A stretch of DNA of 64,000 nucleotides from a bacterium (GTDB lineage Bacteria; JADJOY01), in contig JAXLQJ010000002.1 of the NCBI GenBank assembly GCA_046331705.1, positions 78,370 through 142,369 of the forward strand, written 5' to 3'. Position 1 is the first letter of the stretch, and each line of letters begins with the position of its first letter. Below the pieces are notes generated by a model, which searched no databases, had not been told where the DNA came from, and saw only the letters and a list, made by a program, of their open reading frames with translations. Below, in pieces: positions 1 to 41,757 of the stretch. The position numbers and the translations under genes are program-made.

Positions 1-402
1 GAAGCCGGTGATGCTTCTCGCTGTCGAGCGCCATGGCTTCGAGCAACGCCCGCGTCACCGTGCCGCCCTCCTCCGGAATCCGCGAGCGCAACTCGTGGCA
101 GGCATCGATCGTCTCGCGCTCGTGCCGTCGGAGCTCGCGCGTCAGCTGCAAGAGCTTCGGCCGATCGACGCTGTGGCGCTTGGTCGGCGACGCCTCCCGC
201 GGCTCGCGCAACCAGCTCGCCATGGTGCGCAGCAGCAGATGATGCAGCTCCTCCTCGGTGAGGATGTGACTCACGAGGCTGCCCAGCGCATCCTCGCCGA
301 GGTTCTCCGCGAGCTCCCGATACGTCTCGAGAATCCGTCCCTCTTCGTTCGCGTGGCGATCGAAGCTCGCCGCGAGCGATTCGCGCATCTCGTCCCTGGC
401 CA
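1..402 (-). CDS. hypothetical protein, partial (3' end beyond window start)
   Basis: Minus-strand frame with G/C-dominated third positions; GGAGGA 7 nt upstream of GTG at 402; reads VARDEMRESLAASFDRHANEEGRILETYREL. Preferred over overlapping plus ORF 8..469, whose third positions are mixed. Confidence 0.45.
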
Positions 403-444
403 CGGTCGTATCCTCCGCTCGTCGCGCGTCCGGGATCCGGATCG

Positions 445-2130
445 TCACGCGAGATACGTCTTCATGTAGCGGTCCATCTCGGACGTGGGCTTCCACCACT
501 TCCTGACGCCGAGATCCTCGGCGACGCTGTTGGCGCCCAGATATCCGGGCCCGCCCAGCACGAGCCCGCCGGGATAGGTCGACACGCCGCACACGTAGAG
601 ACCTTCGATCGGGGTGCGCGTGCTCGAGCAGTGCTCGTTCGGGCGGTAATAGCCCATCTGCAGCGGTCGATAGTCGCCGTGCTTGATCGAGCCGCGCCGC
701 ATGTGCGGAAAGCGGATCTCGATGTCCTCGGGGTCCTCCATCGAGCGGCTGACGATGTTCTCGGGCGTGAGGTTCGGCGCGGCCTTGCACCACTTGGCGA
801 GGATCGCTCGCTGGATCTCGTCGCGACGTGCGAGCCATCCGCCCTCGAGATCGTATGGGGCGTGGAGCTGGAACATCGAAACGTATTTCCCGGGCCGGTC
901 GCTCAGCGTCGGATCGAATTGGCTCTCGCAGGTCGAATGTCCGCCGAAGGCATTCAGATCCAGCTTGCCCTGGGCCACGTTCCCCCAATGCGCCAGCAGC
1001 GAATCGACGCCTTCGATCCCCACCACGGTGGCGAAGGCCTGATCGATCCAGGGGTCGTCCGAGCGGTACTTCGGGCGCTCGTTGGCGGCGATGTGAAGCG
1101 TGTTGAAACTCCACTTGTCCCATGCCCAGCCCTTCACCGAGTCCTTGAGCGCGGGCGTGAGGTGAGCCTCGCCGACCAGGTCGAGGAAGGTGGTGTGCGG
1201 ATCGAGCGTCGACATCACCACCTTGGCGCGCAGCTCGCGGTCCTCGTGGAAGAGATGGACGCCGACGGCGCGGCCGTTCTCCACGAGGATCTTGTCGACG
1301 GTGGCGGCTTCCAGGATCAGCCCGCCCCCCTTGAGCACCTGCCGTCCCAGGGCGCTCGCGAACTTGTGCGAGCCGCCGTAGCAGTAGCATTTGTTCATGG
1401 CGCGATCGATCATCAACGGCACCATGAAACCGAGGCCCGTCTCGCGAGGATCGAGCCCCCACATGCAGCTCGCGTAGAGCAAGAGCGCGCGCACCTTGTC
1501 GTGCTCGAAGGTCTCGGTGATGAGCTCGAGCGCGCTCTTCTCGCCCAGCTCCAGCATCTCTTGGCCGACCTTGGTGCGCTGCATCGCCATGGTGATCTCG
1601 ATGGGCGCCATGGGAGGGATGTAGGTCGCGGGCGCGATGATCTCGTCGACGATCTTGCGCCACTGGCGAATGACCTTGCCGAACCTCACCGAGTCCTTGA
1701 ACGAATACTTCGCGAAGGAATCCTTGGTGTCGTTCGCCATCTTGGCGAGCAGGATCGAGCGGCCGTCGTCGAACACCATCCCGGTCTGGCAATTCGGCCG
1801 GATCCAGGTCAGCGCCGGCCCGTCGAGGCCGAAGTCCCGGATGGCGGGCATGTAGTCCACCATCATGTGGTAGAGCACGTGCGGGTTCGACGAATAGCAG
1901 GGATAGAGATTCTCCTCGGTCGCGAGCCCACCCCCGGCCTCGAAGCGGCGCTCCACCACCGCGACGCTCAAGCCCGCCTGCGCGAGGTAGGCGCCGGCGA
2001 TGAGCCCGTTCGGTCCAGCGCCGATGATGACCACGTCGAACTCGCTTCGCTTCGGAAACTCCTCTTGCATGTGTCCGAAGGGATCGGACGGGTCGAACTC
2101 GAACTCGGACGTGTAGTTGAACTTGGGCAT
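445..2130 (-). CDS. FAD-dependent oxidoreductase, phytoene desaturase (CrtI) family, paralog 1
   Basis: N-terminal DVVIIGAGPNGL dinucleotide-binding motif and C-terminal RTPIEGLY motif; AGGACGAGG RBS before ATG (MPKFNYTSEF). Track ORF 445..2238 trimmed to this start. Confidence 0.8.
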   Translation of the reverse strand: MPKFNYTSEFEFDPSDPFGHMQEEFPKRSEFDVVIIGAGPNGLIAGAYLAQAGLSVAVVERRFEAGGGLATEENLYPCYSSNPHVLYHMMVDYMPAIRDFGLDGPALTWIRPNCQTGMVFDDGRSILLAKMANDTKDSFAKYSFKDSVRFGKVIRQWRKIVDEIIAPATYIPPMAPIEITMAMQRTKVGQEMLELGEKSALELITETFEHDKVRALLLYASCMWGLDPRETGLGFMVPLMIDRAMNKCYCYGGSHKFASALGRQVLKGGGLILEAATVDKILVENGRAVGVHLFHEDRELRAKVVMSTLDPHTTFLDLVGEAHLTPALKDSVKGWAWDKWSFNTLHIAANERPKYRSDDPWIDQAFATVVGIEGVDSLLAHWGNVAQGKLDLNAFGGHSTCESQFDPTLSDRPGKYVSMFQLHAPYDLEGGWLARRDEIQRAILAKWCKAAPNLTPENIVSRSMEDPEDIEIRFPHMRRGSIKHGDYRPLQMGYYRPNEHCSSTRTPIEGLYVCGVSTYPGGLVLGGPGYLGANSVAEDLGVRKWWKPTSEMDRYMKTYLA

Positions 2131-2152
2131 GGCCGAGCCTCGTCCTTTCGCC

Positions 2153-3877
2153 TCAACCGCGCTTCGCGGAGATCTTGCCTTGCTGCGGGATGTACCAAGG
2201 CGACGCGTACCACCAGTCGCCCGGCTCGGCGATGCCATCCTCGATGAGGATGTGCATGAGGTTGTAAGGGATCGCCATGAGGCAGAGCCCGCCTGGGTGC
2301 CCCGAGGTCTGATGCGCGTGGTAGAGGCCCTCGATCGGCGTGCGATAGCGCGCCAGCTCCTTGATCGGGCGGTTGGTCCAGAGCTGATCCTCGTCGTGGC
2401 GGCTGCCGCACCAGGTGCCGCCGATGAGCCCGGTGTTGCGGAACTCGACGTCGCGACCGGTGGCGCTCCAGTGGTGGATCAGGTTCGCGTCGTCCAGGCC
2501 GTCCACCATCTGGCCATACGCGGCGCGCATGTACGCATCCATCTCGGCCTTGTAGCGATCGAGGGCGTCCTCGCCTTCCTTGTGGAGGTCCGGCGACGTC
2601 ACCGCGACCTCGAAGGCGTTCGAGACGTAGCCGCGCCGATAGCTCGCCTGGCAGTCGGTGGGATCGAACGTCTGCGGCGGCGCGTGGAACCACATCACGC
2701 GCTCCGCCGGCACCACGGGTTGCCCTTTGTGCCCGTCCACGTCGGCGACGTTCTCGTAATAGATCTCGCGCGAGTCGCACGGATAGACGCCGAGCTGCGG
2801 GGTGCGCGCCGGACCCGCGCCGATACCTTTCGAGTCCGCGTGGGAGGCGAACTTCGCGTTGAGCCGGAGCGGCGTCTTGGTGTGAAAGACCGACACGTAG
2901 AGCGTCTGGTTCTTGAGGCTCACGTCCTTGATCTTCTGGATCACGCCCGGATCCAGGTGCTTCGGGCCGACCATCTTCAGGAACGCCTGGTGCACGTCGA
3001 CGGCGGCGATGACCGCCTTGTTCGCGCGGATGGTGCGACCGCCCATCGCCGCGGTCTCGCGGAGCCGCACGCCGATGGCACGACCATCCTCGATCAGGAT
3101 CTCTTCCACCGGACAGCAGGTGCGGACCATCGCGCCGTGGCTCACCGCAGCGCGATGGATCGCGTGGAAATAGCCGTGCAGACCGCCGCGCGGGATGCTG
3201 CGGTTCCCGGTGTTCGGAAGGGTGAGAAGCTGCACCGACGTCACCGCCGGGATCGCGACTCCCTCCCAGTGGCCCGCCGCCCCCGACGCCCAGGCCGCGA
3301 ACGCCATCGCGGTCTTGAAGTGCTCGGTCTCGCAGTGCTCGTCGAGCAGATCCAGCATCGTCATCTCGCGCAGCTCGTGCGTCCAGATGTCGGGCTGGTG
3401 CTGCTTGTAGACCTGCATGTACGGGACGTTGTCGTCCGTGACTTCCACCTCCGGCGGGTGCGGCGGGCACCAGAACGTCGCGCGCATCAGGTCGCGGGTG
3501 AAGGGCGGCGACCCCAACAACCCGCCGAGCTTCGCCCAGCCGAGCTTGTCGGTGTCGGAGATGGGCCGCCAGCCGTCCGTGCAGGCGAAGTCGGTGTTTT
3601 CCGTGAGCACGTCGTGGGGAGACCAATTCATGCGGAAACCGTGCTTGTGGAGCTCGAGCTGCTGGAAGCCCGGCGCCGGCGACGCGTACATGAGCATCGC
3701 GTGCGGAAAGATCCGCACGCCCGGGATCGGCTCCTGCGTCTCGCAGGCGCCGCCGCACTCGGTGCGCTCCTCGAGCACGCACACACTCAGGCCGCACTTC
3801 GCGAGGTACGCCGCCGTGGTCATGCCATTCGGCCCAGCGCCGACGATCACGATGTCGAACCGTTCGTCCTTGGCCAT
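2153..3877 (-). CDS. FAD-dependent oxidoreductase, phytoene desaturase (CrtI) family, paralog 2
   Basis: MAKDERFDIVIVGAGPNGM N-terminus with GGGAGG RBS; C-terminal RTPIEGLY motif. Track ORF 2153..4117 trimmed. Confidence 0.8.
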   Translation of the reverse strand: MAKDERFDIVIVGAGPNGMTTAAYLAKCGLSVCVLEERTECGGACETQEPIPGVRIFPHAMLMYASPAPGFQQLELHKHGFRMNWSPHDVLTENTDFACTDGWRPISDTDKLGWAKLGGLLGSPPFTRDLMRATFWCPPHPPEVEVTDDNVPYMQVYKQHQPDIWTHELREMTMLDLLDEHCETEHFKTAMAFAAWASGAAGHWEGVAIPAVTSVQLLTLPNTGNRSIPRGGLHGYFHAIHRAAVSHGAMVRTCCPVEEILIEDGRAIGVRLRETAAMGGRTIRANKAVIAAVDVHQAFLKMVGPKHLDPGVIQKIKDVSLKNQTLYVSVFHTKTPLRLNAKFASHADSKGIGAGPARTPQLGVYPCDSREIYYENVADVDGHKGQPVVPAERVMWFHAPPQTFDPTDCQASYRRGYVSNAFEVAVTSPDLHKEGEDALDRYKAEMDAYMRAAYGQMVDGLDDANLIHHWSATGRDVEFRNTGLIGGTWCGSRHDEDQLWTNRPIKELARYRTPIEGLYHAHQTSGHPGGLCLMAIPYNLMHILIEDGIAEPGDWWYASPWYIPQQGKISAKRG

Positions 3878-3930
3878 GAAGCCTCCCAGACTCGTCCCGT
3901 CACCCCACCGATCGACCGCCCCGGCGCCCG

Positions 3931-5559
3931 TCAGACGTAGCCCGCTTCTCGAGCCGCCGTGACGTACGTGGGCTCCGTCCACCACTTCGCGATCGCGAAG
4001 TCCTCGGCGATCGCGTTCGCGCAGTTGTAGCCAGGCCCGAAGATCACCATCCCCCCGGGCGCCGCGCTCGCGCCGCCGAGGTAGAGCCCCTTGACCGGCG
4101 TTCGATATTGCGAGCACTCCTGGTTCGGACGCAGGTAGCCCATCTGCAGCGGGTGGTACGCACCCTGCTTGTAGCTACCCCGCACCATGTTCGCGAACTT
4201 GTTCTGGAGGTCGGCAGGAGTCGTGAGATACGTCCACAACACGGCATCCTTGGTGAGGTTCGGAGCGTACCGACGAAGCACGGCGAGCTGCCGCTCGGCG
4301 GCCTCCTCTCGATACGCTCGATTCAGCCAACGTTCGGATCCCCCGTTCGCCAGCTCGAATGGCGCCATCTGGGAGATCAGTCCCGAGGCTCTCCCCGCGG
4401 GGGCTTGAAACGGATCGTGCCGGCTCGGAAAGCAGCAGTTGAAACCCGCGGCGTCCGGCATCTCGCCCCGCCCCATCGCATCCCAGTGGCTTTTCAGATC
4501 CGCCAGCGACTCGTAACCGAGGACGTAGATGAACGCGTCGTCGATCTCCGGCTCCTTCTCCGCGGCGGTGAAATGCGGCTGCTCGGCGAGGGCCAAGTGC
4601 TGGACGGCCAGGCTCCACTTCTCCCACTGCCACACACGCAGCATCTCGACGAACTCCTCGTCGAGCTTCTCCTCGCCCACGTACTTCAAGAAGGTCTGAT
4701 GGGTGTCGATGGTGCTCACGACGGCCTTGCTCGCCGCGTAGCGCGTCCCGTCCACGAGCTCGACGCCCTTGGCGACGTTGTTCTCGACCACGATCCGAGC
4801 GATCTGCGCGTTGGTTCGGATCTGACCCTTCTGCTCGAAGATCGATTTCAGCAGCGCTCCCGACACGCGGTGCGAACCGCCCACCGTGAGGCGATAATTC
4901 GCCATGCGATTCAAGTAGATCGGCACCATGTAGCTGACGCCCGACTGCGAATAGTCGAGCCCCCAATGACACGCCATGTAGAGCATCAGCGTTCGCACGT
5001 GCTCGTTCTCGAAGAGCTCGCAGACGATCTCTTCCGGCGTCTTCTCCGTGTACTCCGAGAGTGCTCGGCCGAGCTCCGTCATCTCCGCCCGCGCCGCCAT
5101 GAGCGGCGCCGCGTCCATCGGCACGTACGTCTGCGGCCCCAGGATGTGAGTCATCAGCTCGCCGAAGCGACGCTGCATGTCGCGGTAAGTATCCGCGTCT
5201 CGTCTCGAGAACCGAGCGATGGAAGCGCACGATCGCTCGACGTCGTGGTGAATGCAGAGCGCTCGCCCGTCCGCGAGCGGCATCGCGACCTGAAGCTCGG
5301 GGCGGATGTGTCGAACGCCGTATCGCTGCTCGAACTCGAAGTCCGAGTAGACCGGCGCGTAGTCGACCATCATCATGTAGACGGCGTGGGTGTTGTGATA
5401 GAAGTCCGGCAGCGTCACTTGCTCGGTGCAAAGGCCTCCTCCTGCTTCGAAACGTTTTTCGAGCAGCAACACCTTCTGCCCGGCCTTGCTCAGATACGCC
5501 GCGATGGCGAGCCCGTTCGGACCGCTTCCGATGACGATCACGTCGTAGACTTGCGTCAT
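3931..5559 (-). CDS. FAD-dependent oxidoreductase, phytoene desaturase (CrtI) family, paralog 3
   Basis: MTQVYDVIVIGSGPNGL N-terminus; C-terminal RTPVKGLY motif; 542 aa ORF. Confidence 0.8.
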   Translation of the reverse strand: MTQVYDVIVIGSGPNGLAIAAYLSKAGQKVLLLEKRFEAGGGLCTEQVTLPDFYHNTHAVYMMMVDYAPVYSDFEFEQRYGVRHIRPELQVAMPLADGRALCIHHDVERSCASIARFSRRDADTYRDMQRRFGELMTHILGPQTYVPMDAAPLMAARAEMTELGRALSEYTEKTPEEIVCELFENEHVRTLMLYMACHWGLDYSQSGVSYMVPIYLNRMANYRLTVGGSHRVSGALLKSIFEQKGQIRTNAQIARIVVENNVAKGVELVDGTRYAASKAVVSTIDTHQTFLKYVGEEKLDEEFVEMLRVWQWEKWSLAVQHLALAEQPHFTAAEKEPEIDDAFIYVLGYESLADLKSHWDAMGRGEMPDAAGFNCCFPSRHDPFQAPAGRASGLISQMAPFELANGGSERWLNRAYREEAAERQLAVLRRYAPNLTKDAVLWTYLTTPADLQNKFANMVRGSYKQGAYHPLQMGYLRPNQECSQYRTPVKGLYLGGASAAPGGMVIFGPGYNCANAIAEDFAIAKWWTEPTYVTAAREAGYV

Positions 5560-5656
5560 GAGATCCCTCGCGCCTCACTCGCGCCTCACGCGCGCCTCTC
5601 GCGCGCGGCGCGCAGCGCCCTCGCGGGGCTTCGCGCTTGCCATCGATGCGAAACGC

Positions 5657-7384
5657 TCACGCGACCCGCGGTCGGGCGTTCGCCTGCACCCGACGTTTCA
5701 CGATCTTGATCTGCTCGACCAGCGAGTCCGGCTCTTCCTTGCCTGGCTCGAGCCAAGGTTTCGCGAGCCCCAGATCCGCCGCGATGATCCGATAGCAGTT
5801 GTAGGCCTCCGTCGCTCCCGCGTTCGAGCCGACGTGCCACGCGCCGCCCGTGGCATAGAGGTTGGCGATCGGCGTGCGATGGTTCGCGAGCTCGGGCGTC
5901 GGACGGTTCTCGTCGGTCTGGAACGGCGAGCGATCGACGCCCGCCATGGTGCCGTTGGGACCGAGGTTCTTCATGCGGCGGTGATCGAACGAGCAGTTCG
6001 TATCGACGCCGATCACGTTGTCCCAGGTCATGTTGGGCGCGTAGTCCTGCCAGATCGTGATCAGCTCGTCGGCGTAGCGTTTCTTGATCTCGAGCCATTG
6101 CCGCTCGCTGAACGCCGTGGCGGGCGGTCCGAGCTGCTCGTTCTGGACGACGTGCTTTCCCGGAGGCGCGAAGCTCGGATCGACGAGGCTGTGACAGCCC
6201 ACCGTCGGCGCGTAGTCCTCGAGCGGCGGGAACTTCTGAAGCTTCTGGTACCAGCACTCGCGCGCCAGGTGCATCGGGTCGGGATCGGGCTGGAGCCCGA
6301 GCCACTGGCACTCGTGAATGTCCGGGTTGAACGCCTCGGCCTTGTACTTGGGCGCCGCGTGGACCGCGAAGCTGTACCACATGAGGCAGCCGAAGGTGTC
6401 TTGCAACAGCTCGACGCGCCGGCGCAGCAAGCCGTCCACGTGCTCCGCGCCGATCAGATCGAAGATCAATTGGTGCGGCGAGAGCGTGCTGACGACGATC
6501 TTGCGCGCCGCGATCTCGCTGCCGTCCGCGAGACGGATCCCGGTGGCGCGACCATTCTCGATGATGGCCTTGCTGACCGGTGAGCTGGTGAAGAACCGGC
6601 AGCCCCTCTGGATGAGGATCTGATGAGCCGCGTGCGCGATCTGGTGAGTGCCGCCGCGGTTGAAACCGATCGTCGGGAGCGTGGCCGCCATGCCCATCGT
6701 GGTCATGCCGGTGCCCGCTTCGTTGATGTCGACCACCGACGAGATGGCGAAACGCAGGATGCAGGATTGAAGCTCGGGAGACTCGAACCACTCCTGCGCG
6801 GCTCGTAGCCCGCTCGCCTTCATGGTCAACGTGTCCGGCGTGAAACCGTTCTCGAGCAGCGTCGGATAGAGCATCGCCTGGCGCTCCATGACGTCGCCCG
6901 AGATTCGTTCGTCGGCGGGCTTGAACAACGCGTCCACGAGCACCCGCAGGTATTCGTCGGTCTCGGTGAGCTTGGCGAGCCGACGCCAGGTATCGGCGTC
7001 GCGCTCCGAGAAGCGGGCGATCTCGTTGGCGGTCCGCTCTTGGGTGGGATCGTGCTTGACGCTGTAGATCGCGAGACAGCTCTCGGTGTCCCGGAACACG
7101 AAGCCGTCCGCGCACGTGTGCTGATCCCACTGCGCGCCGTAGTCCCAGAACTCGGGGAAGTCGCGCCACACGGGCGCGTAGTACCAGGGCAGGATGATGT
7201 TCGCGTGCGTGTTGCCGCGAAAGCCGGGGGCCGACGTCTCCTCGGTCGCGAGACAACCGCCGACCTCGTGACGGCGCTCGAAGATCCCGACGCTCATGCC
7301 GGCGTACTTCGTCAGGTACATCGCGAGCAACAGCGCCTTGTTGCCGCCCCCCACGATCACCGCGTCGAACGCCGCGTCGGCCAT
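5657..7384 (-). CDS. FAD-dependent oxidoreductase, phytoene desaturase (CrtI) family, paralog 4 (divergent GGGNKA nucleotide-binding loop)
   Basis: MADAAFDAVIVGGGNKAL N-terminus; C-terminal RTPIANLY motif; GAAGGGAG RBS before ATG. Confidence 0.75.
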   Translation of the reverse strand: MADAAFDAVIVGGGNKALLLAMYLTKYAGMSVGIFERRHEVGGCLATEETSAPGFRGNTHANIILPWYYAPVWRDFPEFWDYGAQWDQHTCADGFVFRDTESCLAIYSVKHDPTQERTANEIARFSERDADTWRRLAKLTETDEYLRVLVDALFKPADERISGDVMERQAMLYPTLLENGFTPDTLTMKASGLRAAQEWFESPELQSCILRFAISSVVDINEAGTGMTTMGMAATLPTIGFNRGGTHQIAHAAHQILIQRGCRFFTSSPVSKAIIENGRATGIRLADGSEIAARKIVVSTLSPHQLIFDLIGAEHVDGLLRRRVELLQDTFGCLMWYSFAVHAAPKYKAEAFNPDIHECQWLGLQPDPDPMHLARECWYQKLQKFPPLEDYAPTVGCHSLVDPSFAPPGKHVVQNEQLGPPATAFSERQWLEIKKRYADELITIWQDYAPNMTWDNVIGVDTNCSFDHRRMKNLGPNGTMAGVDRSPFQTDENRPTPELANHRTPIANLYATGGAWHVGSNAGATEAYNCYRIIAADLGLAKPWLEPGKEEPDSLVEQIKIVKRRVQANARPRVA

Positions 7385-7455
7385 CCGGACTCCCTTCTCT
7401 CGTCATCCGCCTGTCGATCGATACGGTGACTCCCCTGCGTCTTGTGCCACGCAGC

Positions 7456-7704
7456 TCAGAAATCGCCGGGATGGATCGGCGGCTTGAACCACGCGCGGAT
7501 GCGCAGCACGAAGGACACCACCGACATCGTGAGCATCGCCTTGAGAATGACGAGGATGTCCTGACGACTCACGGCACCGCGGATCTTCCAGCGCACCGGC
7601 TGAGTCGTTTGCATCTCCATGATGAGGTAATCGCCTTGAGCCTTCAGCGAGACCATCTCCGCCACCAGCTCCGCCTTGCCGAGTCCCGTCGATCGCATCA
7701 GCAT
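7456..7704 (-). CDS. small hypothetical protein with hydrophobic C-terminal segment (82 aa)
   Basis: High-GC3 minus frame; GAGGTGG RBS before ATG; putative TM stretch ILVILKAMLTMSVVSFVL; sits between the operator region and the oxidoreductase quartet. Confidence 0.45.
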   Translation of the reverse strand: MLMRSTGLGKAELVAEMVSLKAQGDYLIMEMQTTQPVRWKIRGAVSRQDILVILKAMLTMSVVSFVLRIRAWFKPPIHPGDF

Positions 7705-7759
7705 CGTTCGTCCACCTCGCTCGTGTCTCGAAAACCCGACCGGCCTCGATCGGCGCGCC

Positions 7760-8101
7760 TCAACTCATCGCCTCGAGATACTTTTCGAGGATGTGGCTCA
7801 TGATCTGCGCCGTCTGCGCCCGCGCTTTTCTGAGCGCGGGATTCGAATGGAGGAAGATGAGGTCGTCGAGCTCTTCGTCGGTGAAGGTCTCCGAGTAGAC
7901 GTACTCCGTGATCGCGATCGCTTGCTGGAAATCGTGGTGGTACTCGTCCTTTGCTTGCTGGAGCTCGGCCGCGAATCGTTCGTTTCCGTCGTTCTTGGCC
8001 TTCGCGATGAAGTACGTGAGCGCGAACTCGACGATGCTCGAATAGTGCGCGTGCGACTCCGATTCGCGCAGGTACTCGCGGGTCTTCTCTATCGATGCCA
8101 T
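7760..8101 (-). CDS. hypothetical protein (113 aa)
   Basis: ORF 7760..8347 trimmed to ATG at 8101 (MASIEKTREYLRESESHAHY); composition distinct from shadow ORFs; first gene downstream of the palindromic operator region on the minus strand. Confidence 0.55.
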   Translation of the reverse strand: MASIEKTREYLRESESHAHYSSIVEFALTYFIAKAKNDGNERFAAELQQAKDEYHHDFQQAIAITEYVYSETFTDEELDDLIFLHSNPALRKARAQTAQIMSHILEKYLEAMS

Positions 8102-8285
8102 GCGTGGCTCCGGGCAGTGGGCGAAGCGCGACGAGGCGCGCCCGGGCGCGTCGGCGCGAGCGCCGACGAGCTCGCAGAGGTTGCTTTCGCGTGAACCGAG
8201 CGCGTCGCGGAGAGTCGCGCGGAAGGTCTCGGTTGGGTGCGGATTCGAGTCACGACGTTCGCGTTTCGATTCCACCGCATGCGAA

Positions 8286-8301
8286 GTAGAACATGTTCTA
8301 C
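8286..8301. promoter_or_regulatory. perfect 16-bp palindrome GTAGAACATGTTCTAC, KstR-type (TnnAACnnGTTnnA) operator-like site
   Basis: Read directly; core TAGAACATGTTCTA fits the TetR/KstR-type consensus; lies in an AT-richer divergent intergenic region. Confidence 0.55.
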
Positions 8302-8475
8302 TCGACGGTATTTCAGGTGCGCAAGCAACTTGCGTGACCTGCAGCACGCAACGATGAAATATTTTTCGAATGGCTCACGGCGCGACGAGACGGTGCGCGG
8401 CGAGAATTTCGAGCGATCGAAGCGCTGGGTGACGGGCGTCACATTTTCAGCCGGCGGCGCTGTTCCATGATGCAA

Positions 8476-8491
8476 GTAGAACGTGTTCTAA
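8476..8491. promoter_or_regulatory. second operator-like palindrome GTAGAACGTGTTCTAA
   Basis: Core TAGAACGTGTTCTA is a perfect 14-bp palindrome fitting TnnAACnnGTTnnA; about 75 bp upstream of the acyl-CoA dehydrogenase start. Confidence 0.55.
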
Positions 8492-8562
8492 TCGAACCGA
8501 CGCGCCGCGGACGGACGGCGGCGGCACAGGCGATCCGCGGCGGATCGTGGAGCGAGCACGGC

Positions 8563-9744
8563 GTGGACTTCGAGCTCAGCCCGGAACAGCACGCGCTGCG
8601 GCGAGAGCTTCGGCGTTATTACCGCGAGCTCTTCACGCCCGAGCTGCGGGCGGCCCTCGACGCCGAATGGCACGAGGTGGGCGGTCCGGTGTTCCGCGAG
8701 GTGGTCGGACGCATGGGGGCGGACGGCTGGCTCGGCATCGGCTGGCCGCGCGAATACGGCGGCCAGGGCCGGACCGCGATCGAGCAGCTCATCTTCTGGG
8801 ACGAGACCTACCGGGCGCGCGCGCCGCTTCCCGTCATCTCGGTGAACACCGTCGGTCCCACGCTGATGCGCTACGGCACCGAGGACCAGAAGGCACGGCT
8901 GCTCCCGGGAATCCTGCGAGGCCAGCTCTTCTTCGCGATCGGCTACACCGAGCCCGGCGCGGGGACCGATCTCGCCTCACTCAAGACGCAAGCCCGCCGC
9001 GACGGTGACGAGTACGTCATCCAGGGACAGAAGGTCTTCACCACCCACGCGCACGACGCCGACTACGTGTGGCTGGCCGCCCGCACCGATCCCGAGGCGC
9101 CGAAGCACAAGGGCATCAGCATCATCCTGGTGCCCACCAGCACGCCCGGCTTCTCGGTGACTCCGACCTACACGCTCGGCGGCGAACGCACCAACACCAC
9201 GTACTTCGACGAGGTGCGCGTGCCGATCGCGAACCGGGTCGGCCCCGAGCACGGCGGCTGGCAGCTCATCACCGCGCAGCTCAATCACGAGCGCATCACG
9301 CTCGCAGCACCCGGCCTCGCCGATCGGTTGCTCGAAGAGGTCTGGCAATGGGCTCGGCGCACGCGCGGCCCCGACGGCGCGCCGATCGCCTCGGCGCCGT
9401 GGGTGGAGCTGTCGCTGGCGCGCGTCTACGCGAAGCTCGAGGCGCTCAAGCTCCTCAACTGGCGCTCCGCGTGGTCGATGTCGGAGGGCGTGCCGCGGAT
9501 GGCCGAGGCCTCCGCGCTCAAGGTGATGGGCACCGAGTTCTTCGGCGAGTGCTACCGGCTGCTGCTCGAGATCACCGGCGCCGCCGGCCTGGTTCCCCAA
9601 GGGGAGACCGGAGCGCTCTTCGGTGGCTTGCTGGAGCAGGCGTACCGGGGCGCCACCACGCTCACCTTCGGCGGTGGCGTGAACGAGGTGCAGCGCGATC
9701 TCATCGCGTGGTCGGGACTCGACCTGCCGAGGTCGCGAGGCTGA
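8563..9744 (+). CDS. acyl-CoA dehydrogenase
   Basis: VDFELSPEQHALRREL N-terminus typical of ACADs; C-terminal GGGVNEVQRDLIA; start moved from 8467 to in-frame GTG at 8563, because the 8467 start overlaps the operator palindrome. Confidence 0.8.
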   Translation: MDFELSPEQHALRRELRRYYRELFTPELRAALDAEWHEVGGPVFREVVGRMGADGWLGIGWPREYGGQGRTAIEQLIFWDETYRARAPLPVISVNTVGPTLMRYGTEDQKARLLPGILRGQLFFAIGYTEPGAGTDLASLKTQARRDGDEYVIQGQKVFTTHAHDADYVWLAARTDPEAPKHKGISIILVPTSTPGFSVTPTYTLGGERTNTTYFDEVRVPIANRVGPEHGGWQLITAQLNHERITLAAPGLADRLLEEVWQWARRTRGPDGAPIASAPWVELSLARVYAKLEALKLLNWRSAWSMSEGVPRMAEASALKVMGTEFFGECYRLLLEITGAAGLVPQGETGALFGGLLEQAYRGATTLTFGGGVNEVQRDLIAWSGLDLPRSRG

Positions 9745-9754
9745 CGAGGCAAAC

Positions 9755-10744
9755 ATGGCCGCCACCCCATCCGATCGCGAGCAGCTCGAGACGAGACTCA
9801 AGGGGTTCGCGGGCATCGCCGCGGGGCCGCCGGAGATCGCCCGCGACGTGGTGGAAGCCGCGACGATCCGCCAATGGTGCGATGCCCTCGACGATCGCAA
9901 CCCGATCTACACCGACCCCGCGGCCGCCGCCGCGTCGGTCCACGGCCGTGTGGTCGCTCCGCCCACCATGCTGCAGGCGTGGGTGCTGCCGGGCATCGAG
10001 ATGGCCAGCGGGGTCGCGCGCCCCGGCGACAAGCAGCGCGAGCTGCACGCGCTCCTCGACCGCCACGGCTACACCGGCGTCGTGGCCACCAATTGCCAGC
10101 AGGGCTACGACCGCTATCTGCACCTGGGCGAGCGCGTGACCGGCACCACCGTCATCGAGTCGATCTCGGGCGAGAAGGCGACCGCGCTCGGTATCGGCTA
10201 CTTCATCGACACGCGCACCACCTTCCGCGACGACGACGGCGAGCGCGTGGGATGGATGACGTTCCGCGTGCTCAAGTTCAAGCCCGCAGCGCCCCCTGCC
10301 GCGAGCGAGCGCGACGCCGCGGGCGCGCCCGTCAAGCCCCGGCGGCTGCGGCCCGCGCTGGGTCACGACAACGCGTGGTGGTGGGAAGGGATCCGCCGCG
10401 GCGAGCTGCTCATCCAGCGCTGCAAGAGCTGCGGCCACCTGCGCCATCCGCCGCGACCGATGTGCGGCGAGTGCCGTTCGCTCGAATGGGACGCGCTCTC
10501 CTCGAAGGGCCACGGCAGCGTCTACAGCTTCGTGGTGATGCACCACCCGCAGGTGCCCGGCTACGAGTACCCGCTCATCGTGGCCCTCGTCGAGCTCGAC
10601 GAAGGCACCCGGCTGATCGCGAACCTCACGGGCATCGAGCCCCGCGCCGTGCGCATCGGGCTGCGGGTCGCGCTCGCCATCGAAGCCGTCGATCCCGAGC
10701 TCAGCTTGCCGTTCTTCCACCCCGACACCACCGCACCGGGCTGA
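9755..10744 (+). CDS. MaoC-like hydratase fused to C-terminal DUF35 OB-fold/Zn-ribbon domain (ChsH2-like architecture)
   Basis: N-terminal hot-dog-like region; C-terminal CKSCGH...CGECRS zinc ribbon followed by an OB-fold-like segment; the same two-domain layout as mycobacterial ChsH2. Confidence 0.8.
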   Translation: MAATPSDREQLETRLKGFAGIAAGPPEIARDVVEAATIRQWCDALDDRNPIYTDPAAAAASVHGRVVAPPTMLQAWVLPGIEMASGVARPGDKQRELHALLDRHGYTGVVATNCQQGYDRYLHLGERVTGTTVIESISGEKATALGIGYFIDTRTTFRDDDGERVGWMTFRVLKFKPAAPPAASERDAAGAPVKPRRLRPALGHDNAWWWEGIRRGELLIQRCKSCGHLRHPPRPMCGECRSLEWDALSSKGHGSVYSFVVMHHPQVPGYEYPLIVALVELDEGTRLIANLTGIEPRAVRIGLRVALAIEAVDPELSLPFFHPDTTAPG

Positions 10745-10746
10745 CC

Positions 10747-11883
10747 ATGGATTTCGCGCTCGACGAGGATCAGCAGTCGCTCCAGGCGCTGGCCCGCCAG
10801 ATCTTGGAACGGGAGGTCACGCCAGCGCGGATTCGCGCGGCGCTGGCGAGCGCGGACGGCATGGATCACGCGCTCTGGTCGACGCTCGCCGACGCGGGCC
10901 TCCTGGGGATCGGCGTTCCCGAGACGCACGGCGGCCTCGGCGGCGGTCTCGAGGCGCTGAGCTTGCTGCTGGTCGAGGTGGGGCGCGCCGTGGCGCCCGT
11001 GCCGGCGCTCGCGTCGCTCGCGCTGGCGGGCCTCGCGATCGCGCGTTTTGGAACCGAGCGGCAACGCGCCGAGCTGCTCGCGCCGCTCGCCGCGGGCCGG
11101 ACCGTTCTCACCGCGGCGCTCGTCGACGGCGAATCGTCCGATCCCCTCCGCCCCGCATGCAGCGCGCGACGCGACGGCGCGAGCTGGGTGATCGACGGCT
11201 CGAAGCGCCAGGTGCCCGCGATCGCCGCCGCCAGCGCGATCGTCGTGCCCGCGCGCACCGAAGGCGGCGTCGGTCTCTTCGTGGTGCCGCCGAGCGCCGC
11301 CGGCGTCGAGCCGAGCCGCCGGCGCTGCTCGAGCGGCGAGCCGATCGCCGATCTGGCCCTCACGGGCGTGCGCGTGGACGCCGACGCGCTGCTCGGCACG
11401 GCGGCGCCCGTCGGCGACGACGCGAGCCGCTGGCTCCACGAGCACGCGCTCGCCGCGACTTGCGCCGTGCACCTGGGTGTCTGCGAGCGCGCGCTCGAGC
11501 TGACCCGCGACTACGTTCGCGAGCGGCGTCAGTTCGGCGTGCCGATCGGCTCGTTCCAGGCGGTGAGCCATCGCGCCGCCGATGGCTTCATCGACGTCGA
11601 GTGCATCCGCTGGACCACCTGGCAGGCGGTGACGCGGGTGGCGCGCGGCCTCGACGCGACCCGCGCGCTCGCCGTCGCGAAGTTCTGGGCCGCCGAGGGC
11701 GGAGCGCGCGTCACCAGCTCCGCGCAGCACCTCCACGGCGGCATCGGCGCCGACCTCGACTACCCGATCCACCGCTATTTCCTGTGGTCGAAGGCGCTCG
11801 AGCTGAGCCTCGGCGGTGCCACCGAGCAGCTCGCGAGGCTCGGTCGCGATCTGGTGACCCGCGGCCCGGAGGTGCTCGCATGA
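10747..11883 (+). CDS. acyl-CoA dehydrogenase (second subunit-like)
   Basis: MDFALDEDQQSLQALARQILEREV start 3 nt after the upstream stop. The track ORF 9874..11883 is an artefactual 5' extension in this frame. Confidence 0.8.
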   Translation: MDFALDEDQQSLQALARQILEREVTPARIRAALASADGMDHALWSTLADAGLLGIGVPETHGGLGGGLEALSLLLVEVGRAVAPVPALASLALAGLAIARFGTERQRAELLAPLAAGRTVLTAALVDGESSDPLRPACSARRDGASWVIDGSKRQVPAIAAASAIVVPARTEGGVGLFVVPPSAAGVEPSRRRCSSGEPIADLALTGVRVDADALLGTAAPVGDDASRWLHEHALAATCAVHLGVCERALELTRDYVRERRQFGVPIGSFQAVSHRAADGFIDVECIRWTTWQAVTRVARGLDATRALAVAKFWAAEGGARVTSSAQHLHGGIGADLDYPIHRYFLWSKALELSLGGATEQLARLGRDLVTRGPEVLA

Positions 11884-12308
11884 ACGACTGCGCGCTTCGC
11901 CTTCGCGACGTGAACGTGGGCGACGTGCTGCCCGAGCTGGCGATCGACGTCACCACCACCCTGATCGTCGCAGGCGCCCTCGCCTCGCACGACTTCACGC
12001 CCGTTCACCACGACAAGGCCGCTGCCCGAGCGCAGGGCTTGAACGACGTGTTCATGAACATCCTCACGACCAACGGCCTGGTGGGGCGCTACGTCACCGA
12101 TTGGGCCGGGCCGAACGCGCGGCTCACCGGCGTCGCGATCAAGCTCGGAGCGCCCAACCTGCCCGGCGACACGATGCGCATGTCGGGCGTCGTCAAGAGC
12201 AAGGACGACGCGCGCGGCTCCGTCGAGGTCGAGGTCACCGGCAAGAACTCGTGGGGAAACCACGTGACCGCGACGGTCGCGTTGCTGCTGCCCGAGGACG
12301 CCGCGTGA
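11880..12308 (+). CDS. MaoC family dehydratase, small hot-dog subunit (ChsH1-like)
   Basis: ATGA start/stop overlap with the upstream gene; GGAGG RBS; 142 aa MNDCALRLRDVNVGDV...; tail of track ORF 11157..12308. Confidence 0.75.
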   Translation: MNDCALRLRDVNVGDVLPELAIDVTTTLIVAGALASHDFTPVHHDKAAARAQGLNDVFMNILTTNGLVGRYVTDWAGPNARLTGVAIKLGAPNLPGDTMRMSGVVKSKDDARGSVEVEVTGKNSWGNHVTATVALLLPEDAA

Positions 12309-12357
12309 CGGCGCAGCTCCCGTCCGGACGCGCACCGAGCAGCGAGCGGAGCCACGC

Positions 12358-13530
12358 ATGCCCACGACGTTGAGGGATCAGGCCGCGATCGTCGGCATCG
12401 GCGAGACCGACTACTCGAAGAACTCGGGGCGCTCCGAGGTTCAGCTCGCCAGCGAAGCGGTCGCCGCCGCCCTCGACGACGCCGGGCTGCGCCCCTCCGA
12501 CGTCGACGGCATGACCACGTTCACCCTCGACTCGAGCGACGAGATCGAGGTGGCGCGTGCCGTGGGCATCCGCGACCTCACGTTCTTCAGCCGCGTGCCC
12601 CACGGCGGCGGCGCCGCGGTCGGCGTGGTCCATCAAGCGGCGATGGCGGTCGCCACCGGCGCGGCGCGCACGGTGGTGTGCTACCGCGCGCTCAACGGCC
12701 GCTCGGGTCAGCGCTACAGCTCCGGCGTCGCCGACGGGCCGACCACCTCCGATCTCATCCATTGGAGCTGGTACATGCCCTTCGGCCTCATGACGCCCGC
12801 GAGCTGGGTGGCGATGTTCGCCCAGCGCTACATGCACGAGTACGGCGTCACCAGCCTCGACTTCGGGCGGGTCGCGGTGTCGACGCGCAAGCACGCGGTG
12901 CGCAATCCGCGAGCGTTCTTCCACGGCAAGCCGCTCTCGATCGCCGAGCACCAGGCGTCGCGGCTGATCGTCGAGCCGTTGCGTCTCTACGATTGCTGCC
13001 AGGAGACCGACGGCGGCTGCGCCTGCATCGTGACCACGCCCGACCGCGCGCGCGATTGCCGCCAGCCCGCCGCGACGATTCGCGGCGTCGCGCAAGGCTC
13101 GTGCGCCGATCAGGAAGTGATGACCAGCTTCTATCGGCCGAGCATCTCCGGGCTGCCCGAGATGGACCTGGTGGCGCGCCAGGTCTACGACGTCTCGGGC
13201 TTGCGCCCAGACGACGTGGACGCGGCGGTGATCTACGACGCCTTCTCGCCCATCGTGCTGTGGCAGCTCGAGAGCTTCGGCTTCTGCAAGGTCGGCGAAG
13301 CGCGCGATTTCGTGAACGGCGGCAATCTCGAGATCGGCGGGCGCCTGCCGAGCAACACCCACGGCGGGCAGCTCAGCGAGGCCTACGTCCACGGCATGAA
13401 CGGCGTGAACGAGGGCGTGCGGCTGATCCGCGGCACCTCGTGCAATCAACCGCGGCGCAACGATCACGTGCTGGTCACCGCCGGCGTGGGCGTTCCGACC
13501 AGCGCCATGATCCTCGGCAAGACCGCGTGA
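12358..13530 (+). CDS. thiolase-like lipid-transfer protein (SCP-x type, Ltp2-like)
   Basis: IVGIGETDYSKNSGRSE thiolase-like N-terminus; CCQETDGGCACIV; GGAG RBS. Confidence 0.8.
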   Translation: MPTTLRDQAAIVGIGETDYSKNSGRSEVQLASEAVAAALDDAGLRPSDVDGMTTFTLDSSDEIEVARAVGIRDLTFFSRVPHGGGAAVGVVHQAAMAVATGAARTVVCYRALNGRSGQRYSSGVADGPTTSDLIHWSWYMPFGLMTPASWVAMFAQRYMHEYGVTSLDFGRVAVSTRKHAVRNPRAFFHGKPLSIAEHQASRLIVEPLRLYDCCQETDGGCACIVTTPDRARDCRQPAATIRGVAQGSCADQEVMTSFYRPSISGLPEMDLVARQVYDVSGLRPDDVDAAVIYDAFSPIVLWQLESFGFCKVGEARDFVNGGNLEIGGRLPSNTHGGQLSEAYVHGMNGVNEGVRLIRGTSCNQPRRNDHVLVTAGVGVPTSAMILGKTA

Positions 13531-14799
<1,269 letters not shown>

Positions 14800-14874
14800 G
14801 CTTCCGCGCCGACCAGCGGACCGCGTCGAACCACGCGAGGACCTCGACAACCCGAGCATGCGGAGGAGCTGGCG

Positions 14875-15810
14875 ATGACGACGAACGCGAGGCCGCTCGA
14901 AGGGAAGGTCGCGATCGTGACGGGCGCGGGACGTGGGCTGGGACGCGCCGAAGCGCTGGCGCTCGCCGCGCACGGCGCGCGCGTGGTGATCAACGACCTC
15001 GGCGTGGCGGGGGACGGCTCGGGCGCGGACGAGGGCCCCGCACGCGAGGTGGTGGCCGAGATCGAGCGCGCCGGTGGCGAGGCGATCGCCCATTTCGGCG
15101 ACGTCGCGCGCTGGGACGACGCGGCGGCGCTGGTGGCGCGGGCGGTCGACGTGTTCGGCGATCTGCACGTCCTCGTGAACAACGCCGGCTTCAGCCGCGA
15201 TCGCATGATCTTCAACATGTCGGAGCAGGATTGGGACTCGGTGATCCGCGTCCATCTCAAGGGCCATTTCTGCACCTCGCGATTCGCCACCGCGCATTGG
15301 AGGGAGCAGGCGAAGGTCGCGGGTGGCCCGGTCTACGGGCGCATCGTCAACACCGCGTCCGAGGCGTTCCTGTTCGGACCGGCCGGGCTGGCCAACTACG
15401 CCGCCGCGAAGTCGGGAATCGTCGGCCTCACCGTCGCCACCGCGCACGCGTGCGAGAAATACGGCGTGACGGCCAACGTGGTGTGCCCGCGGGCACGCAC
15501 CCGCATGAACAGCGAAGGGAGCCTCGGCGCGCTGTTCGCCAAGCCCGAGCAGGGATTCGACACCTACGACCCCGCCAACGTGGCGCCGCTGGTGGCGTAC
15601 CTCGCGTCGCCTGCCGCCGGGCGCATCAACGCCCACGTGTTCCTGGCGTGGGGAACGCAGGTCTGCTTGATCGGCGCGCCGCGCGTCCTCGAGACCTTCA
15701 CGAGCGACGCGCGCTGGACGGTCGACCGGCTCGACGAGCGCGTCGGCCGCTACCTGGAGACCCGCGATCCCGCCTCCACGGCGTTCGCCGCCGAGCTTCC
15801 CGGGATCTGA
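14875..15810 (+). CDS. SDR family oxidoreductase, MFE-2/Hsd4A-like hydroxyacyl-CoA dehydrogenase
   Basis: [13 protein letters not shown] cofactor motif, [14 protein letters not shown] segment, YAAAK catalytic motif; GGAGGAG RBS. Confidence 0.8.
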
Positions 15811-16761: not shown

Positions 16762-16806
16762 TGATTCTGAATTTAGGAATGCTGGTTTTTGAGCGGGAGG
16801 CTCTGC

Positions 16807-17484
16807 ATGTCGGTCGCCGTCGCCGTCGCGATCACGATTGGAATGGTGATGTCCGCCTTCACGATGGGGGCGGTGGTGTGGGGCTTCTACTCGCCGATCA
16901 GCGCCAACATCCGCATCCGGGAAGAGAAGGCGCGCAAGCTCAAGGGCTGGCCGGTGGCGCTGCGGATCGGGCTCAACGGGCTGTTCTCGTCGGGACTCGT
17001 GTACCTGCTCGCGCTGGCCTTGCAGCACCAGCTCTTCTACGCGGCGCGCCCGTCGCTGGCGCGGCTCGCGTTCGAGTCGGTCGCGGTGCTCGTCGTCTAC
17101 GACTTCCTCTACTACTTGCTGCACCGCTATCCGTTTCACGCGTGGCCGGGCTTGCGCGAGGTGCACGCGGTCCATCACCGCGCCAAGTACCCGATCGCGT
17201 TCGACAGCCTCTACCTGAATCCCATCGAGACCCTCGCCGGTCTCGCCTTGCTCACCTTCTGCACCTGGCTGGTCGGGCCGGTGAGCGTGCACGCGTTCGG
17301 GCTGATCTTCTTGGTGTACTCGCAGATGAACATCCTGGTTCACTGCGGGCTCGATCTGCCCGGCGCGCTCCGGCCGTTTGGCTTCATGGCGCGCAAGCAC
17401 GACGCGCATCACCGGCACATGAAGGCCGGCAACTTCGCGTCGCTGACTCCGATCTGGGATCGGCTCTTCCGCACCGCGGAGTGA
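16807..17484 (+). CDS. sterol desaturase / fatty acid hydroxylase superfamily membrane protein
   Basis: Histidine boxes HRYPFH, HAVHHR and HDAHHRH in a hydrophobic protein; start set at ATG 16807 behind GGAGG. Confidence 0.8.
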   Translation: MSVAVAVAITIGMVMSAFTMGAVVWGFYSPISANIRIREEKARKLKGWPVALRIGLNGLFSSGLVYLLALALQHQLFYAARPSLARLAFESVAVLVVYDFLYYLLHRYPFHAWPGLREVHAVHHRAKYPIAFDSLYLNPIETLAGLALLTFCTWLVGPVSVHAFGLIFLVYSQMNILVHCGLDLPGALRPFGFMARKHDAHHRHMKAGNFASLTPIWDRLFRTAE

Positions 17485-19445: not shown

Positions 19446-19467
19446 GAGCGCCCCCGCACCGCGGGCC

Positions 19468-20643: not shown

Positions 20644-20868
20644 GCACCGCAGCGTGCCACGCGATCCGAGTGCGCGGCGAGGCGGCTGGCGGACGCGGGC
20701 GGCCGCCGCGCGCGCGCCGTCGCGCCTCGGTCCGGGCGGGCGCGGTGCGGGCGGGGTGCGCAGGCTACCCGCGCAACCCGGTGCCGCGCGGGGCGGCGAG
20801 TGCTATAGATTCGCGCTTCCCCGGGCGGTGCAAGGGCCCCCCGGGCGAGCCCCGACCAGGACCGAGCC

Positions 20869-26403: not shown

Positions 26404-26489
26404 AACGCGTTTCAATCCGCCGCCGTCACCGCGCCGGAGCCGGGCTCGCCGCCGGGCGCCCCGAGGCGCGTGCCCCCCGAGGTCCACTC

Positions 26490-41722: not shown

Positions 41723-41757
41723 GGCGCCGCAAATCTAGCGTATGGTGGCGCGGGCGC

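Follow-up and report, generated by a model that had tools for sequence, protein, structure and literature searches.

Four genes for proteins resembling the carotenoid desaturase CrtI lie in tandem at the start of a 64,000-nucleotide stretch of DNA from an uncultured, probably Binatia-like bacterium (assembly GCA_046331705.1, contig JAXLQJ010000002.1, positions 78,370 to 142,369 of the forward strand; this whole stretch is called the window). The question raised by the locus is what these proteins do in a catabolic neighbourhood that holds no carotenoid partners. The four (A, B, C and D) can be assigned from their sequences to the family of heteromeric covalent-flavin enzymes that contains limonene dehydrogenase (CtmAB) and delta-24 steroid desaturase (delta-24-SD). 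Their genes form two modules, B+A and D+C with the small protein E, and not four equal paralogs. We give somewhat better than an even chance to the reading that the modules encode two heteromeric flavin dehydrogenases, which would oxidise allylic C-H bonds and in this way activate the side chain of a sterol or isoprenoid so that it can enter beta-oxidation.

The seven-gene cluster and the family of its flavoproteins

The cluster occupies the first 8.1 kb of the window (positions 1-8101) as a minus-strand run of seven co-oriented genes in the order F-E-D-C-B-A-G, spaced by 22-97 bp. The first gene is F (7760..8101, 113 aa), followed by E (7456..7704, 82 aa) and the four large genes D (5657..7384, 575 aa), C (3931..5559, 542 aa), B (2153..3877, 574 aa) and A (445..2130, 561 aa). 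G (1..403) is the last cluster gene inside the window; it starts at GTG 403, 41 bp past the A stop, and is cut by the window start, leaving at least 134 aa of a protein that has ~144 aa in relatives. A terminator scan of the minus strand between positions 1 and 8600 found no terminator-like site; the scans were uninformative, with 0 promoter-like sites and fewer terminator-like sites than expected.

An earlier description of this DNA, made without database searches (the sequence-only reading), had reported four consecutive large open reading frames (ORFs) on the minus strand with gaps of 22-97 bp, and these were confirmed. Its N-terminal dinucleotide-binding motif was recovered as Rossmann/NAD_binding_8 matches in A, B, C and D, each of which also matched Amino_oxidase (Pfam). 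The C-terminal motif that it gave as RTP(I/V)xGLY needs a small correction: RTP..LY is present in all four large proteins, and D reads RTPIANLY, with N instead of G.

In pairwise comparison A and C were 38% identical (E 7e-130), and the remaining pairs among A-D were 25-28% identical (E 2e-20 to 5e-48), including D-C at 27.6% and B-A at 25.7%. The four are true, anciently diverged paralogs. They are under purifying selection, as is E, with a dN/dS (ratio of nonsynonymous to synonymous substitution rates) of 0.05-0.16 against orthologs in two related genomes (A 0.08-0.13; D 0.11-0.16; E 0.08-0.12); the values for F were 0.15-0.26. The sequence-only reading had named decay of the paralogs into pseudogenes as a possibility to be checked, and the intact ORFs together with these ratios ruled it out. 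The G+C content of the cluster was 0.64-0.67, compared with 0.67-0.73 for most of the window. This lower value and the 65-73% identity of A-D to Dehalococcoidia orthologs are consistent with the module having been transferred horizontally.

Biochemical work exists on only two members of the family: CtmAB, from Castellaniella defragrans (PMC4109377), and delta-24-SD, from Sterolibacterium denitrificans (PMC11061730). Both are heteromers of two phytoene-dehydrogenase-like subunits that are encoded by adjacent genes and share 26-27% identity (PMC11061730, PMC4109377). In delta-24-SD, a large (alpha-beta)4 assembly, flavin mononucleotide is bound covalently in each subunit at the His of G-F-[LR]-x-[NS]-[TL]-H-A; CtmAB, a pair of COG1233 flavoproteins, has the same His motif in both subunits and is also described with a covalent flavin in each, and the beta subunit of the desaturase (SDbeta) is 38% identical to CtmB (PMC11061730).

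The delta-24-SD sequences printed in the supplement of PMC11061730 served as references, and all four large proteins aligned end to end with both subunits. A and C were each 35% identical to SDbeta over the full length (E 1.7e-94 and 1.6e-94), which is about the same distance as that published between SDbeta and CtmB. Within the two pairs of the window, D/C and B/A, alpha/beta identities of 26-28% and sizes of ~63 and 57-61 kDa match the published values for CtmAB and for delta-24-SD, whose adjacent genes encode CrtI-like alpha (~63 kDa) and beta (~57 kDa) subunits at 26-27% mutual identity (PMC11061730).

Relatives were collected with a beta-type profile from one genome per GTDB species. This gave 215 matches, of which the best 80 loci were used (some are referred to below by their L numbers); Castellaniella and Sterolibacterium are not in this set. 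The best 80 of 215 are almost all from uncultured organisms, mostly of anaerobe-type lineages. In a family-wide alignment of 188 members from the 80 loci, the flavinylation His was found at the expected place. The D motif PGFRGNTHAN contains an exact match to the published covalent-flavin motif (GFRGNTHA), and C (PDFYHNTHAV), B (PGVRIFPHAM) and A (PCYSSNPHV) keep the His with degenerate flanks. In a separate alignment His58 of C is invariant, and it corresponds to His58 of SDbeta, the residue that is flavinylated in the Sterolibacterium enzyme. Across orthologs the motif His was present in 19/19 A, 16/17 B and 65/67 C proteins. A more CrtI-like paralog of the 505-aa type has Trp, Phe or Gly at this position. 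The D-type proteins carry His in 43 cases and Cys in 15 distant members; the latter, 15/58 of the type (e.g. PGFIQNPCAHF), come from L027, L031, L035-L060 and others, and the substitution could reflect a different covalent flavin linkage.

An unbootstrapped neighbour-joining tree separated the A, B, C and D types into four clades. A, C and SDbeta fell into one beta clade, in which A is sister to SDbeta-like sequences, and the D clade stands alone. A and C are beta-type subunits by sequence, the predicted partners of B and D respectively, and B and D appear to represent two separate alpha-position lineages. The cluster departs from delta-24-SD, with which it shares the N-terminal His motif and a context of steroid side-chain degradation, in having two tandem pairs and in that B and D form clades separate from the alpha subunit of that enzyme.

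The profile placement that the sequence-only reading had proposed as a check put A-D well below the curated carotenoid and KstD cut-offs. The top NCBIfam model for A, B, C and D was the CrtO ketolase (NF045689) at 174, 104, 232 and 135 bits, respectively, against a cut-off of 1000, and crtI_fam (TIGR02734) gave 68.5, 31.7, 104 and 33.8 bits against 238.1. Scores for the CrtD, CRTISO, HpnE and KstD models were far lower still. The KstD match was confined to the first ~46 residues (B 30 bits, D 14 bits, cut-off 789), the N-terminal Rossmann region, and a KstD identity was ruled out because the Rossmann motif alone matches. As the sequence-only reading had claimed, a Pfam scan of coding-like ORFs across the 64-kb window revealed neither a synthase for phytoene or prenyl diphosphates nor a lycopene cyclase, and crtB, crtE and crtY were likewise absent from the scanned window ORFs and from the Pfam gene tables of L003, L005 and L006. 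A carotenoid-enzyme identity of A-D was ruled out by the missed cut-offs and the lack of crt partners in these ORFs and gene tables.

CrtI, CrtD, CrtO and CRTISO (PDB 4dgk, 4rep) do share with A-D the N-terminal Rossmann motif, the Amino_oxidase domain and a C-terminal TPxxxLY flavin-binding motif, and they act beside existing double bonds, as CtmAB and delta-24-SD do. They differ from A-D, which are paired, carry the flavinylation His and stand in a catabolic context that lacks crtB, crtE and crtY. Searches against the PDB with phmmer gave CrtI 4dgk as the closest solved structure to C (E 2e-9, over half of its length) and a weak match, essentially none, for D; no solved structure of the CtmAB/delta-24-SD family was among the PDB matches of C and D. 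The Joint Genome Institute (JGI) annotation labels many D orthologs 'beta-carotene ketolase (CrtO type)' or 'phytoene dehydrogenase-like'. These carotenoid names are probably misleading, and such ketolase and desaturase labels from public pipelines could inflate carotenoid or 'pigment' predictions in studies of metagenome-assembled genomes (MAGs) of Binatia and Chloroflexota.

Two modules and their small partner proteins

Databases contain more than 1000 homologs of D. The top 120, with identities of 66-100%, belong to MAGs of Candidatus Binatia, Chloroflexota and Dehalococcoidia, and the window is therefore probably part of a Binatia-like MAG. Binatia-like MAGs hold orthologs of each type at 79-95% identity, and Dehalococcoidia MAGs hold B, A, C and D orthologs at 71, 65, 68 and 73%, respectively; B, for example, is 95% identical to its ortholog in L083 and 71% identical to a 581-aa protein in L003. 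Conserved co-occurrence of the four genes, which the sequence-only reading had suggested looking for, was found in part: all four types occur together in 5 loci from two phyla, and the pairs also occur separately. B-type and A-type genes were always neighbours (11/11), with B before A (12/12), and C-type and D-type genes were neighbours in 33/39 cases, in either order. D-C-E was found without B-A in L005, L006, L009 and L019, the first of these being a Binatia genome with the order F-E-D-C-G, and B-A without D-C in L070, L076 and L085. In Desulfobacterales, C-E-D stands beside a XylR_N/V4R sigma-54 activator. Dehalococcoidia have ~3.6 kb between the two pairs, and their D and C are split by CoA-transferase genes. 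What had been described as a quartet is really two alpha/beta pairs of flavoproteins plus a small third protein.

The order D-C-B-A with gaps of 22-97 bp is kept in the Binatia-like loci L007, L008 and L083, and the complete order F-E-D-C-B-A-G in L007 and L083. The closest relatives, with L083 as the basis for the region past the window start, also bear on the claim that the cluster has seven genes, which holds inside the window. Past G (L083 15164-20916; L007 15292-17227) they continue with a fifth CrtI-family paralog of ~500 aa, the 505-aa type, which has no His at the flavinylation site and a crtI_fam score of 111 bits (cut-off 238), then with an acetoacetate-decarboxylase-family gene and a fused 751-aa acyl-CoA dehydrogenase (ACAD). 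The trio of B, A and the 505-aa type is conserved in L014, L041, L070, L076 and L085. Acidimicrobiales/Actinomycetes loci (L077-L079) carry a different tandem set, B/A-like plus SDalpha/SDbeta-like, which shows that tandem alpha-beta/alpha-beta arrangements recur.

The wider neighbourhoods were examined in the 39 loci of at least 12 kb. A tungsten-type aldehyde:ferredoxin oxidoreductase (AOR) gene lay within 10 kb of the flavoprotein pairs in 19/39, and XylR_N/V4R sigma-54 activators within 10 kb in 6/39. A short-chain dehydrogenase/reductase (SDR) was near the modules in 17/39, and zinc-dependent alcohol dehydrogenase (ADH), CoA-transferase and beta-oxidation genes were also seen. The AOR genes and the activators suggest a widespread anaerobic route from hydrocarbon through alcohol and aldehyde to acid, and the neighbours together fit a continuation to acyl-CoA.

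E had no Pfam or NCBIfam match, and every one of its 331 homologs is annotated 'hypothetical'. Among 1.84 billion representative proteins the family counts 147 members, almost all of them stand-alone with a length of 80-90 aa, and its two ends are invariant (RSTGLGKAEL at the N-terminus, HPG at the C-terminus). A hidden Markov model of the family detected E in 38/80 loci, mostly 4-100 bp from C-type or D-type genes, and a Dehalococcoidia ortholog of 46% identity adjoins a C-type gene. The AlphaFold2 model was helical, with a predicted local distance difference test score (pLDDT) of 71, a moderate confidence. The sequence-only reading had noted both small ORFs ahead of D, which are present as it said, and had called the 82-aa product a membrane protein. 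That label is doubtful, because the hydrophobic helix behind it is not conserved in orthologs (Kyte-Doolittle maximum 2.09 in the window, 1.35 in the family consensus and 1.22 in Dehalococcoidia). E is a candidate for the third (gamma) component of the D/C enzyme; no such protein linked to the pair is reported for delta-24-SD. The ctm cluster also holds small hypothetical genes, ctmC and ctmD.

F had no family match in Pfam or NCBIfam and is kept in position solely in the Binatia-like L002, L005, L007 and L083, at 52-100% identity. G, with 129 homologs, comes after C or A in L005, L007, L030 and L083. Its AlphaFold2 model was a four-helix bundle (pLDDT 92); a Foldseek search of the PDB gave no significant match, bacterioferritin being the best at E 0.24, and the match to Pfam Ferritin was weak and below cut-off (E 2e-4). 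His and Glu residues at H17, E21, E51, E52, H54, H55, H94, E95 and H131 are invariant, and their pairs are reminiscent of ferritin-like di-metal sites. The label 'ferritin-like' is thus suggested by these residues, by the weak Pfam match and by the ferritin-like/YciE names that JGI gives to some homologs.

The divergent operon, the KstR-type boxes and the rest of the window

The sequence-only reading had placed a steroid-type beta-oxidation operon divergent from the cluster, and this was borne out by Pfam architectures and NCBIfam matches. The operon (8467..15807, plus strand) has the order ACAD, ChsH2-like (MaoC-like plus zinc ribbon plus OB), ACAD, MaoC, Ltp2-like, steroid 3-ketoacyl-CoA thiolase and SDR. 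The thiolase matched NF005889 at equivalog level (648 bits, cut-off 515) and the lipid-transfer protein matched PRK07855 (633 bits, cut-off 469); BbsB was also among the NCBIfam matches. By its gene content the operon can be classed as igr-like, of the ChsE/ChsH/Ltp2/FadA5 type.

The divergent control region (8102..8490) contains two KstR-type palindromes, TAGAACATGTTCTA at 8287-8300 and TAGAACGTGTTCTA at 8477-8490, which lie in the region or at its edge and are both conserved in L083 and L002. The mycobacterial KstR operator motif, with which these boxes were compared, is TnnAACnnGTTnnA. A third palindrome, TAGAACGCGTTTCA, lies at 26401-26414, so that the window has 3 matches to TNNAACNNGTTNNA where 0.17 would be expected by chance; the palindromes that the sequence-only reading had pointed out are thus real. 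The third box is 76 bp upstream of a gene of the 3beta-hydroxysteroid dehydrogenase (3beta-HSD)/NAD-epimerase family (ATG 26490 to 27479), which is followed by a 3-oxo-5alpha-steroid 4-dehydrogenase-family (steroid-5alpha-reductase-family) gene (PF02544, ~27.5-28.2 kb). The segment 26401-28245 thus has the look of another transcription unit of steroid type that belongs to this putative regulon.

In mycobacteria the igr operon (Rv3540c-Rv3545c) belongs with Cyp125 to the KstR regulon. The window resembles it in having a set of ChsE1/E2-ChsH1/H2-Ltp2 type beside a gene for terminal side-chain oxidation, with TnnAACnnGTTnnA operators. It differs in phylum, in that flavin dehydrogenases stand in place of the O2-dependent P450 Cyp125, and in that the window ORFs scanned included no KstR gene.

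Two genes flank the beta-oxidation operon. One, at 16777-17481 on the plus strand, belongs to the fatty-acid-hydroxylase superfamily (PF04116, di-iron, O2-dependent), which also includes sterol desaturases. The other, at 19471-20802 on the minus strand, encodes an Old Yellow Enzyme (OYE)-family flavoprotein. Between these genes is an ORF of 694 aa (17547-19628, minus strand) with a strong coding signal (G+C of 0.89 at third codon positions) and no Pfam match even at E 0.01. A 919-aa protein (41539-44295, plus strand) has the unusual architecture of an N-terminal B12-binding domain followed by PQQ/beta-propeller repeats and is unrelated to the cluster. The rest of the window is of housekeeping type (hrcA-grpE-dnaK-dnaJ, tol-pal, PBP1, kinases).

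Proposed mechanism, alternatives and significance

The reading that we prefer may be set out as follows. One enzyme would consist of D (alpha-position) and C (beta-type), probably with E as its third component, and a second of B (alpha-position) and A (beta-type). If they resemble the two characterised members, the flavin would be held covalently by the conserved N-terminal His in each large subunit. Each enzyme would oxidise, without O2, a C-H bond next to a C=C bond in an isoprenoid chain, through the desaturation known from delta-24-SD, through the water-dependent hydroxylation of an allylic methyl group known from CtmAB, or through both. Electrons would presumably pass to an acceptor, for which the ferritin-like G is only a candidate. 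In this organism the likely substrate would be the side chain of a sterol or another isoprenoid; its oxidised terminus would be converted to the acid and then to the acyl-CoA, and the latter shortened by the ChsE/ChsH/Ltp2/FadA5-like divergent operon. A KstR-type repressor would control both operons. The sequence-only reading had proposed a multi-subunit or sequential desaturase/isomerase acting on a sterol-like or polyene lipid, in place of a standard carotenoid pathway. Its core is supported: all carotenoid cut-offs are missed, the proteins match a heteromeric family, and the neighbouring operon has a steroid 3-ketoacyl-CoA thiolase at equivalog level. Nothing supports the 'isomerase', and the sterol-like substrate stays a likely one.

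The published systems offer parallels to this scheme. CtmAB oxidises an allylic methyl group without O2 (PMC4109377), and its product is then handled by dehydrogenases for the alcohol and the aldehyde, activated with CoA and passed to steps like those of beta-oxidation. The ADH, AOR and CoA-transferase neighbours of the modules elsewhere mirror this sequence. A difference from Sterolibacterium is that no molybdenum-dependent C26 hydroxylase was seen in the window.

Several points weigh against the preferred reading. The delta-24-SD requires a pre-existing delta-22 bond (PMC11061730), so that desaturation of a saturated cholesterol side chain would be without precedent. B and D were only 25-28% identical to SDalpha (B 25-27%; E 1e-14 to 1e-38), an identity no higher than the one to SDbeta, and B grouped weakly with SDalpha-like sequences, on a short, unbootstrapped branch of the neighbour-joining tree. 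The hydroxylase branch, CtmA and CtmB, is set beside A-D by published description and not by sequence comparison, and the ctm cluster has a 2Fe-2S ferredoxin and a reductase (ctmEF), whereas no ferredoxin, electron-transfer flavoprotein or reductase gene is in the window cluster. No TetR_N/KstR gene was found among the window ORFs scanned, which did not cover every small ORF, and the regulator may be encoded elsewhere in the genome; none of the steroid ring-degradation genes kstD, kshA and hsa was found in the window. The O2-dependent fatty-acid-hydroxylase-family enzyme implies that the organism is not restricted to anoxic chemistry. Finally, most D/C/E relatives are in anaerobes beside AOR and XylR-type regulators, not steroid genes, so that substrates are probably diverse.

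This last point leads to the alternative that survives best, a possibility of some weight though short of a probable one. The enzymes would be of the same family and the substrate a non-steroid terpenoid or isoprenoid hydrocarbon (monoterpene, squalene, phytadiene or hopanoid-type), with CtmAB-like allylic methyl hydroxylation feeding a generic beta-oxidation of branched or alicyclic acyl-CoA and a steroid look that is coincidental. The occurrence of D/C/E in Desulfobacterales, Dehalococcoidia, Bacillota and other anaerobe-type MAGs fits such a substrate, as do the AOR (19/39), SDR, ADH and CoA-transferase neighbours, the XylR_N/V4R activators of hydrocarbon-sensor type and the lack of steroid ring-cleavage genes in the window. 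SCP-x thiolase/DUF35 sets serve non-steroid pathways too, and BbsB was matched. The equivalog-level steroid thiolase, the complete ChsE/ChsH2/ChsH1/Ltp2-type set and the three exact KstR-type boxes, one of them before 3beta-HSD- and steroid-5alpha-reductase-family genes, argue for a steroid.

That A-D form, with E, one obligate complex of four or five subunits instead of two alpha/beta enzymes is improbable. The separate occurrence of D-C-E (L005, L006, L009, L019) and of B-A (L070, L076, L085), and the spaced pairs and split D and C of Dehalococcoidia, show the pairs to be separable. Such a complex would nevertheless account for the close D-C-B-A spacing kept in L007, L008 and L083 and for the co-occurrence of four types in 5 loci of two phyla, and there are the size of the (alpha-beta)4 delta-24-SD itself and the tandem sets of L077-L079.

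We think it very improbable that the proteins work as reductases, saturating the double bonds of isoprenoids or polyenes like RetSat and CRTISO relatives. Saturases and isomerases do occur in the CrtI superfamily, a strictly anaerobic life is found in many of the host lineages, and OYE-type ene-reductases are near in the window and in L005, but both characterised relatives are oxidative, and the ADH, AOR, CoA-transferase and beta-oxidation neighbours fit an oxidative activation. A conventional carotenoid set (CrtI, CrtO, CrtD, CRTISO) with its synthase and cyclase genes elsewhere in the genome is barely credible, for although CrtO is the best NCBIfam match of all four proteins and lends its name to JGI orthologs, the scores are 104-232 bits against 1000 (CrtO) and 32-104 against 238 (crtI_fam), the more CrtI-like 505-aa type is the one missing the covalent-flavin His, and the neighbourhood is catabolic, without crt genes in the window or in the gene tables of L003, L005 and L006.

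Within the preferred reading of two allylic dehydrogenases, a bolder version can be formulated, which we regard as doubtful. D+C+E and B+A would act in sequence, one pair desaturating and the other hydroxylating the resulting allylic methyl group, as a flavin-only route free of O2, molybdenum and ATP that functionalises the unactivated end of a sterol or isoprenoid side chain; E would be an unrecognised third subunit of a large, widespread clade, and G would couple the re-oxidation of the flavin to a metal centre. If true, this route would replace Cyp125 of aerobes or the S25DH/kinase/S26DH cascade of Sterolibacterium.

The kind of enzyme is already known from the papers of 2014 and 2024. Apart from these two enzymes, the literature searched has no description of the four-gene set, the E protein or the AOR association. 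What appears to be undescribed there is the D/C/E clade and its small partner, the recurrence of two pairs in tandem, the wide occurrence of the family in uncultured phyla, and its link, in a Binatia-like organism, to a steroid-type regulon with KstR boxes. The family is one of few known O2-free ways to attack unactivated hydrocarbon C-H bonds. The window and ~80 related loci reveal it as large, with members in Binatia-like bacteria that are uncultured and in Chloroflexota/Dehalococcoidia, Desulfobacterales, Actinomycetota and Bacillota, and as modular, built from alpha/beta pairs that are often two in tandem, one major clade having a conserved 82-aa partner. The KstR-type operators and the igr-like operon make this locus a testable candidate for O2-independent activation of sterol or isoprenoid side chains in a globally distributed uncultured phylum.

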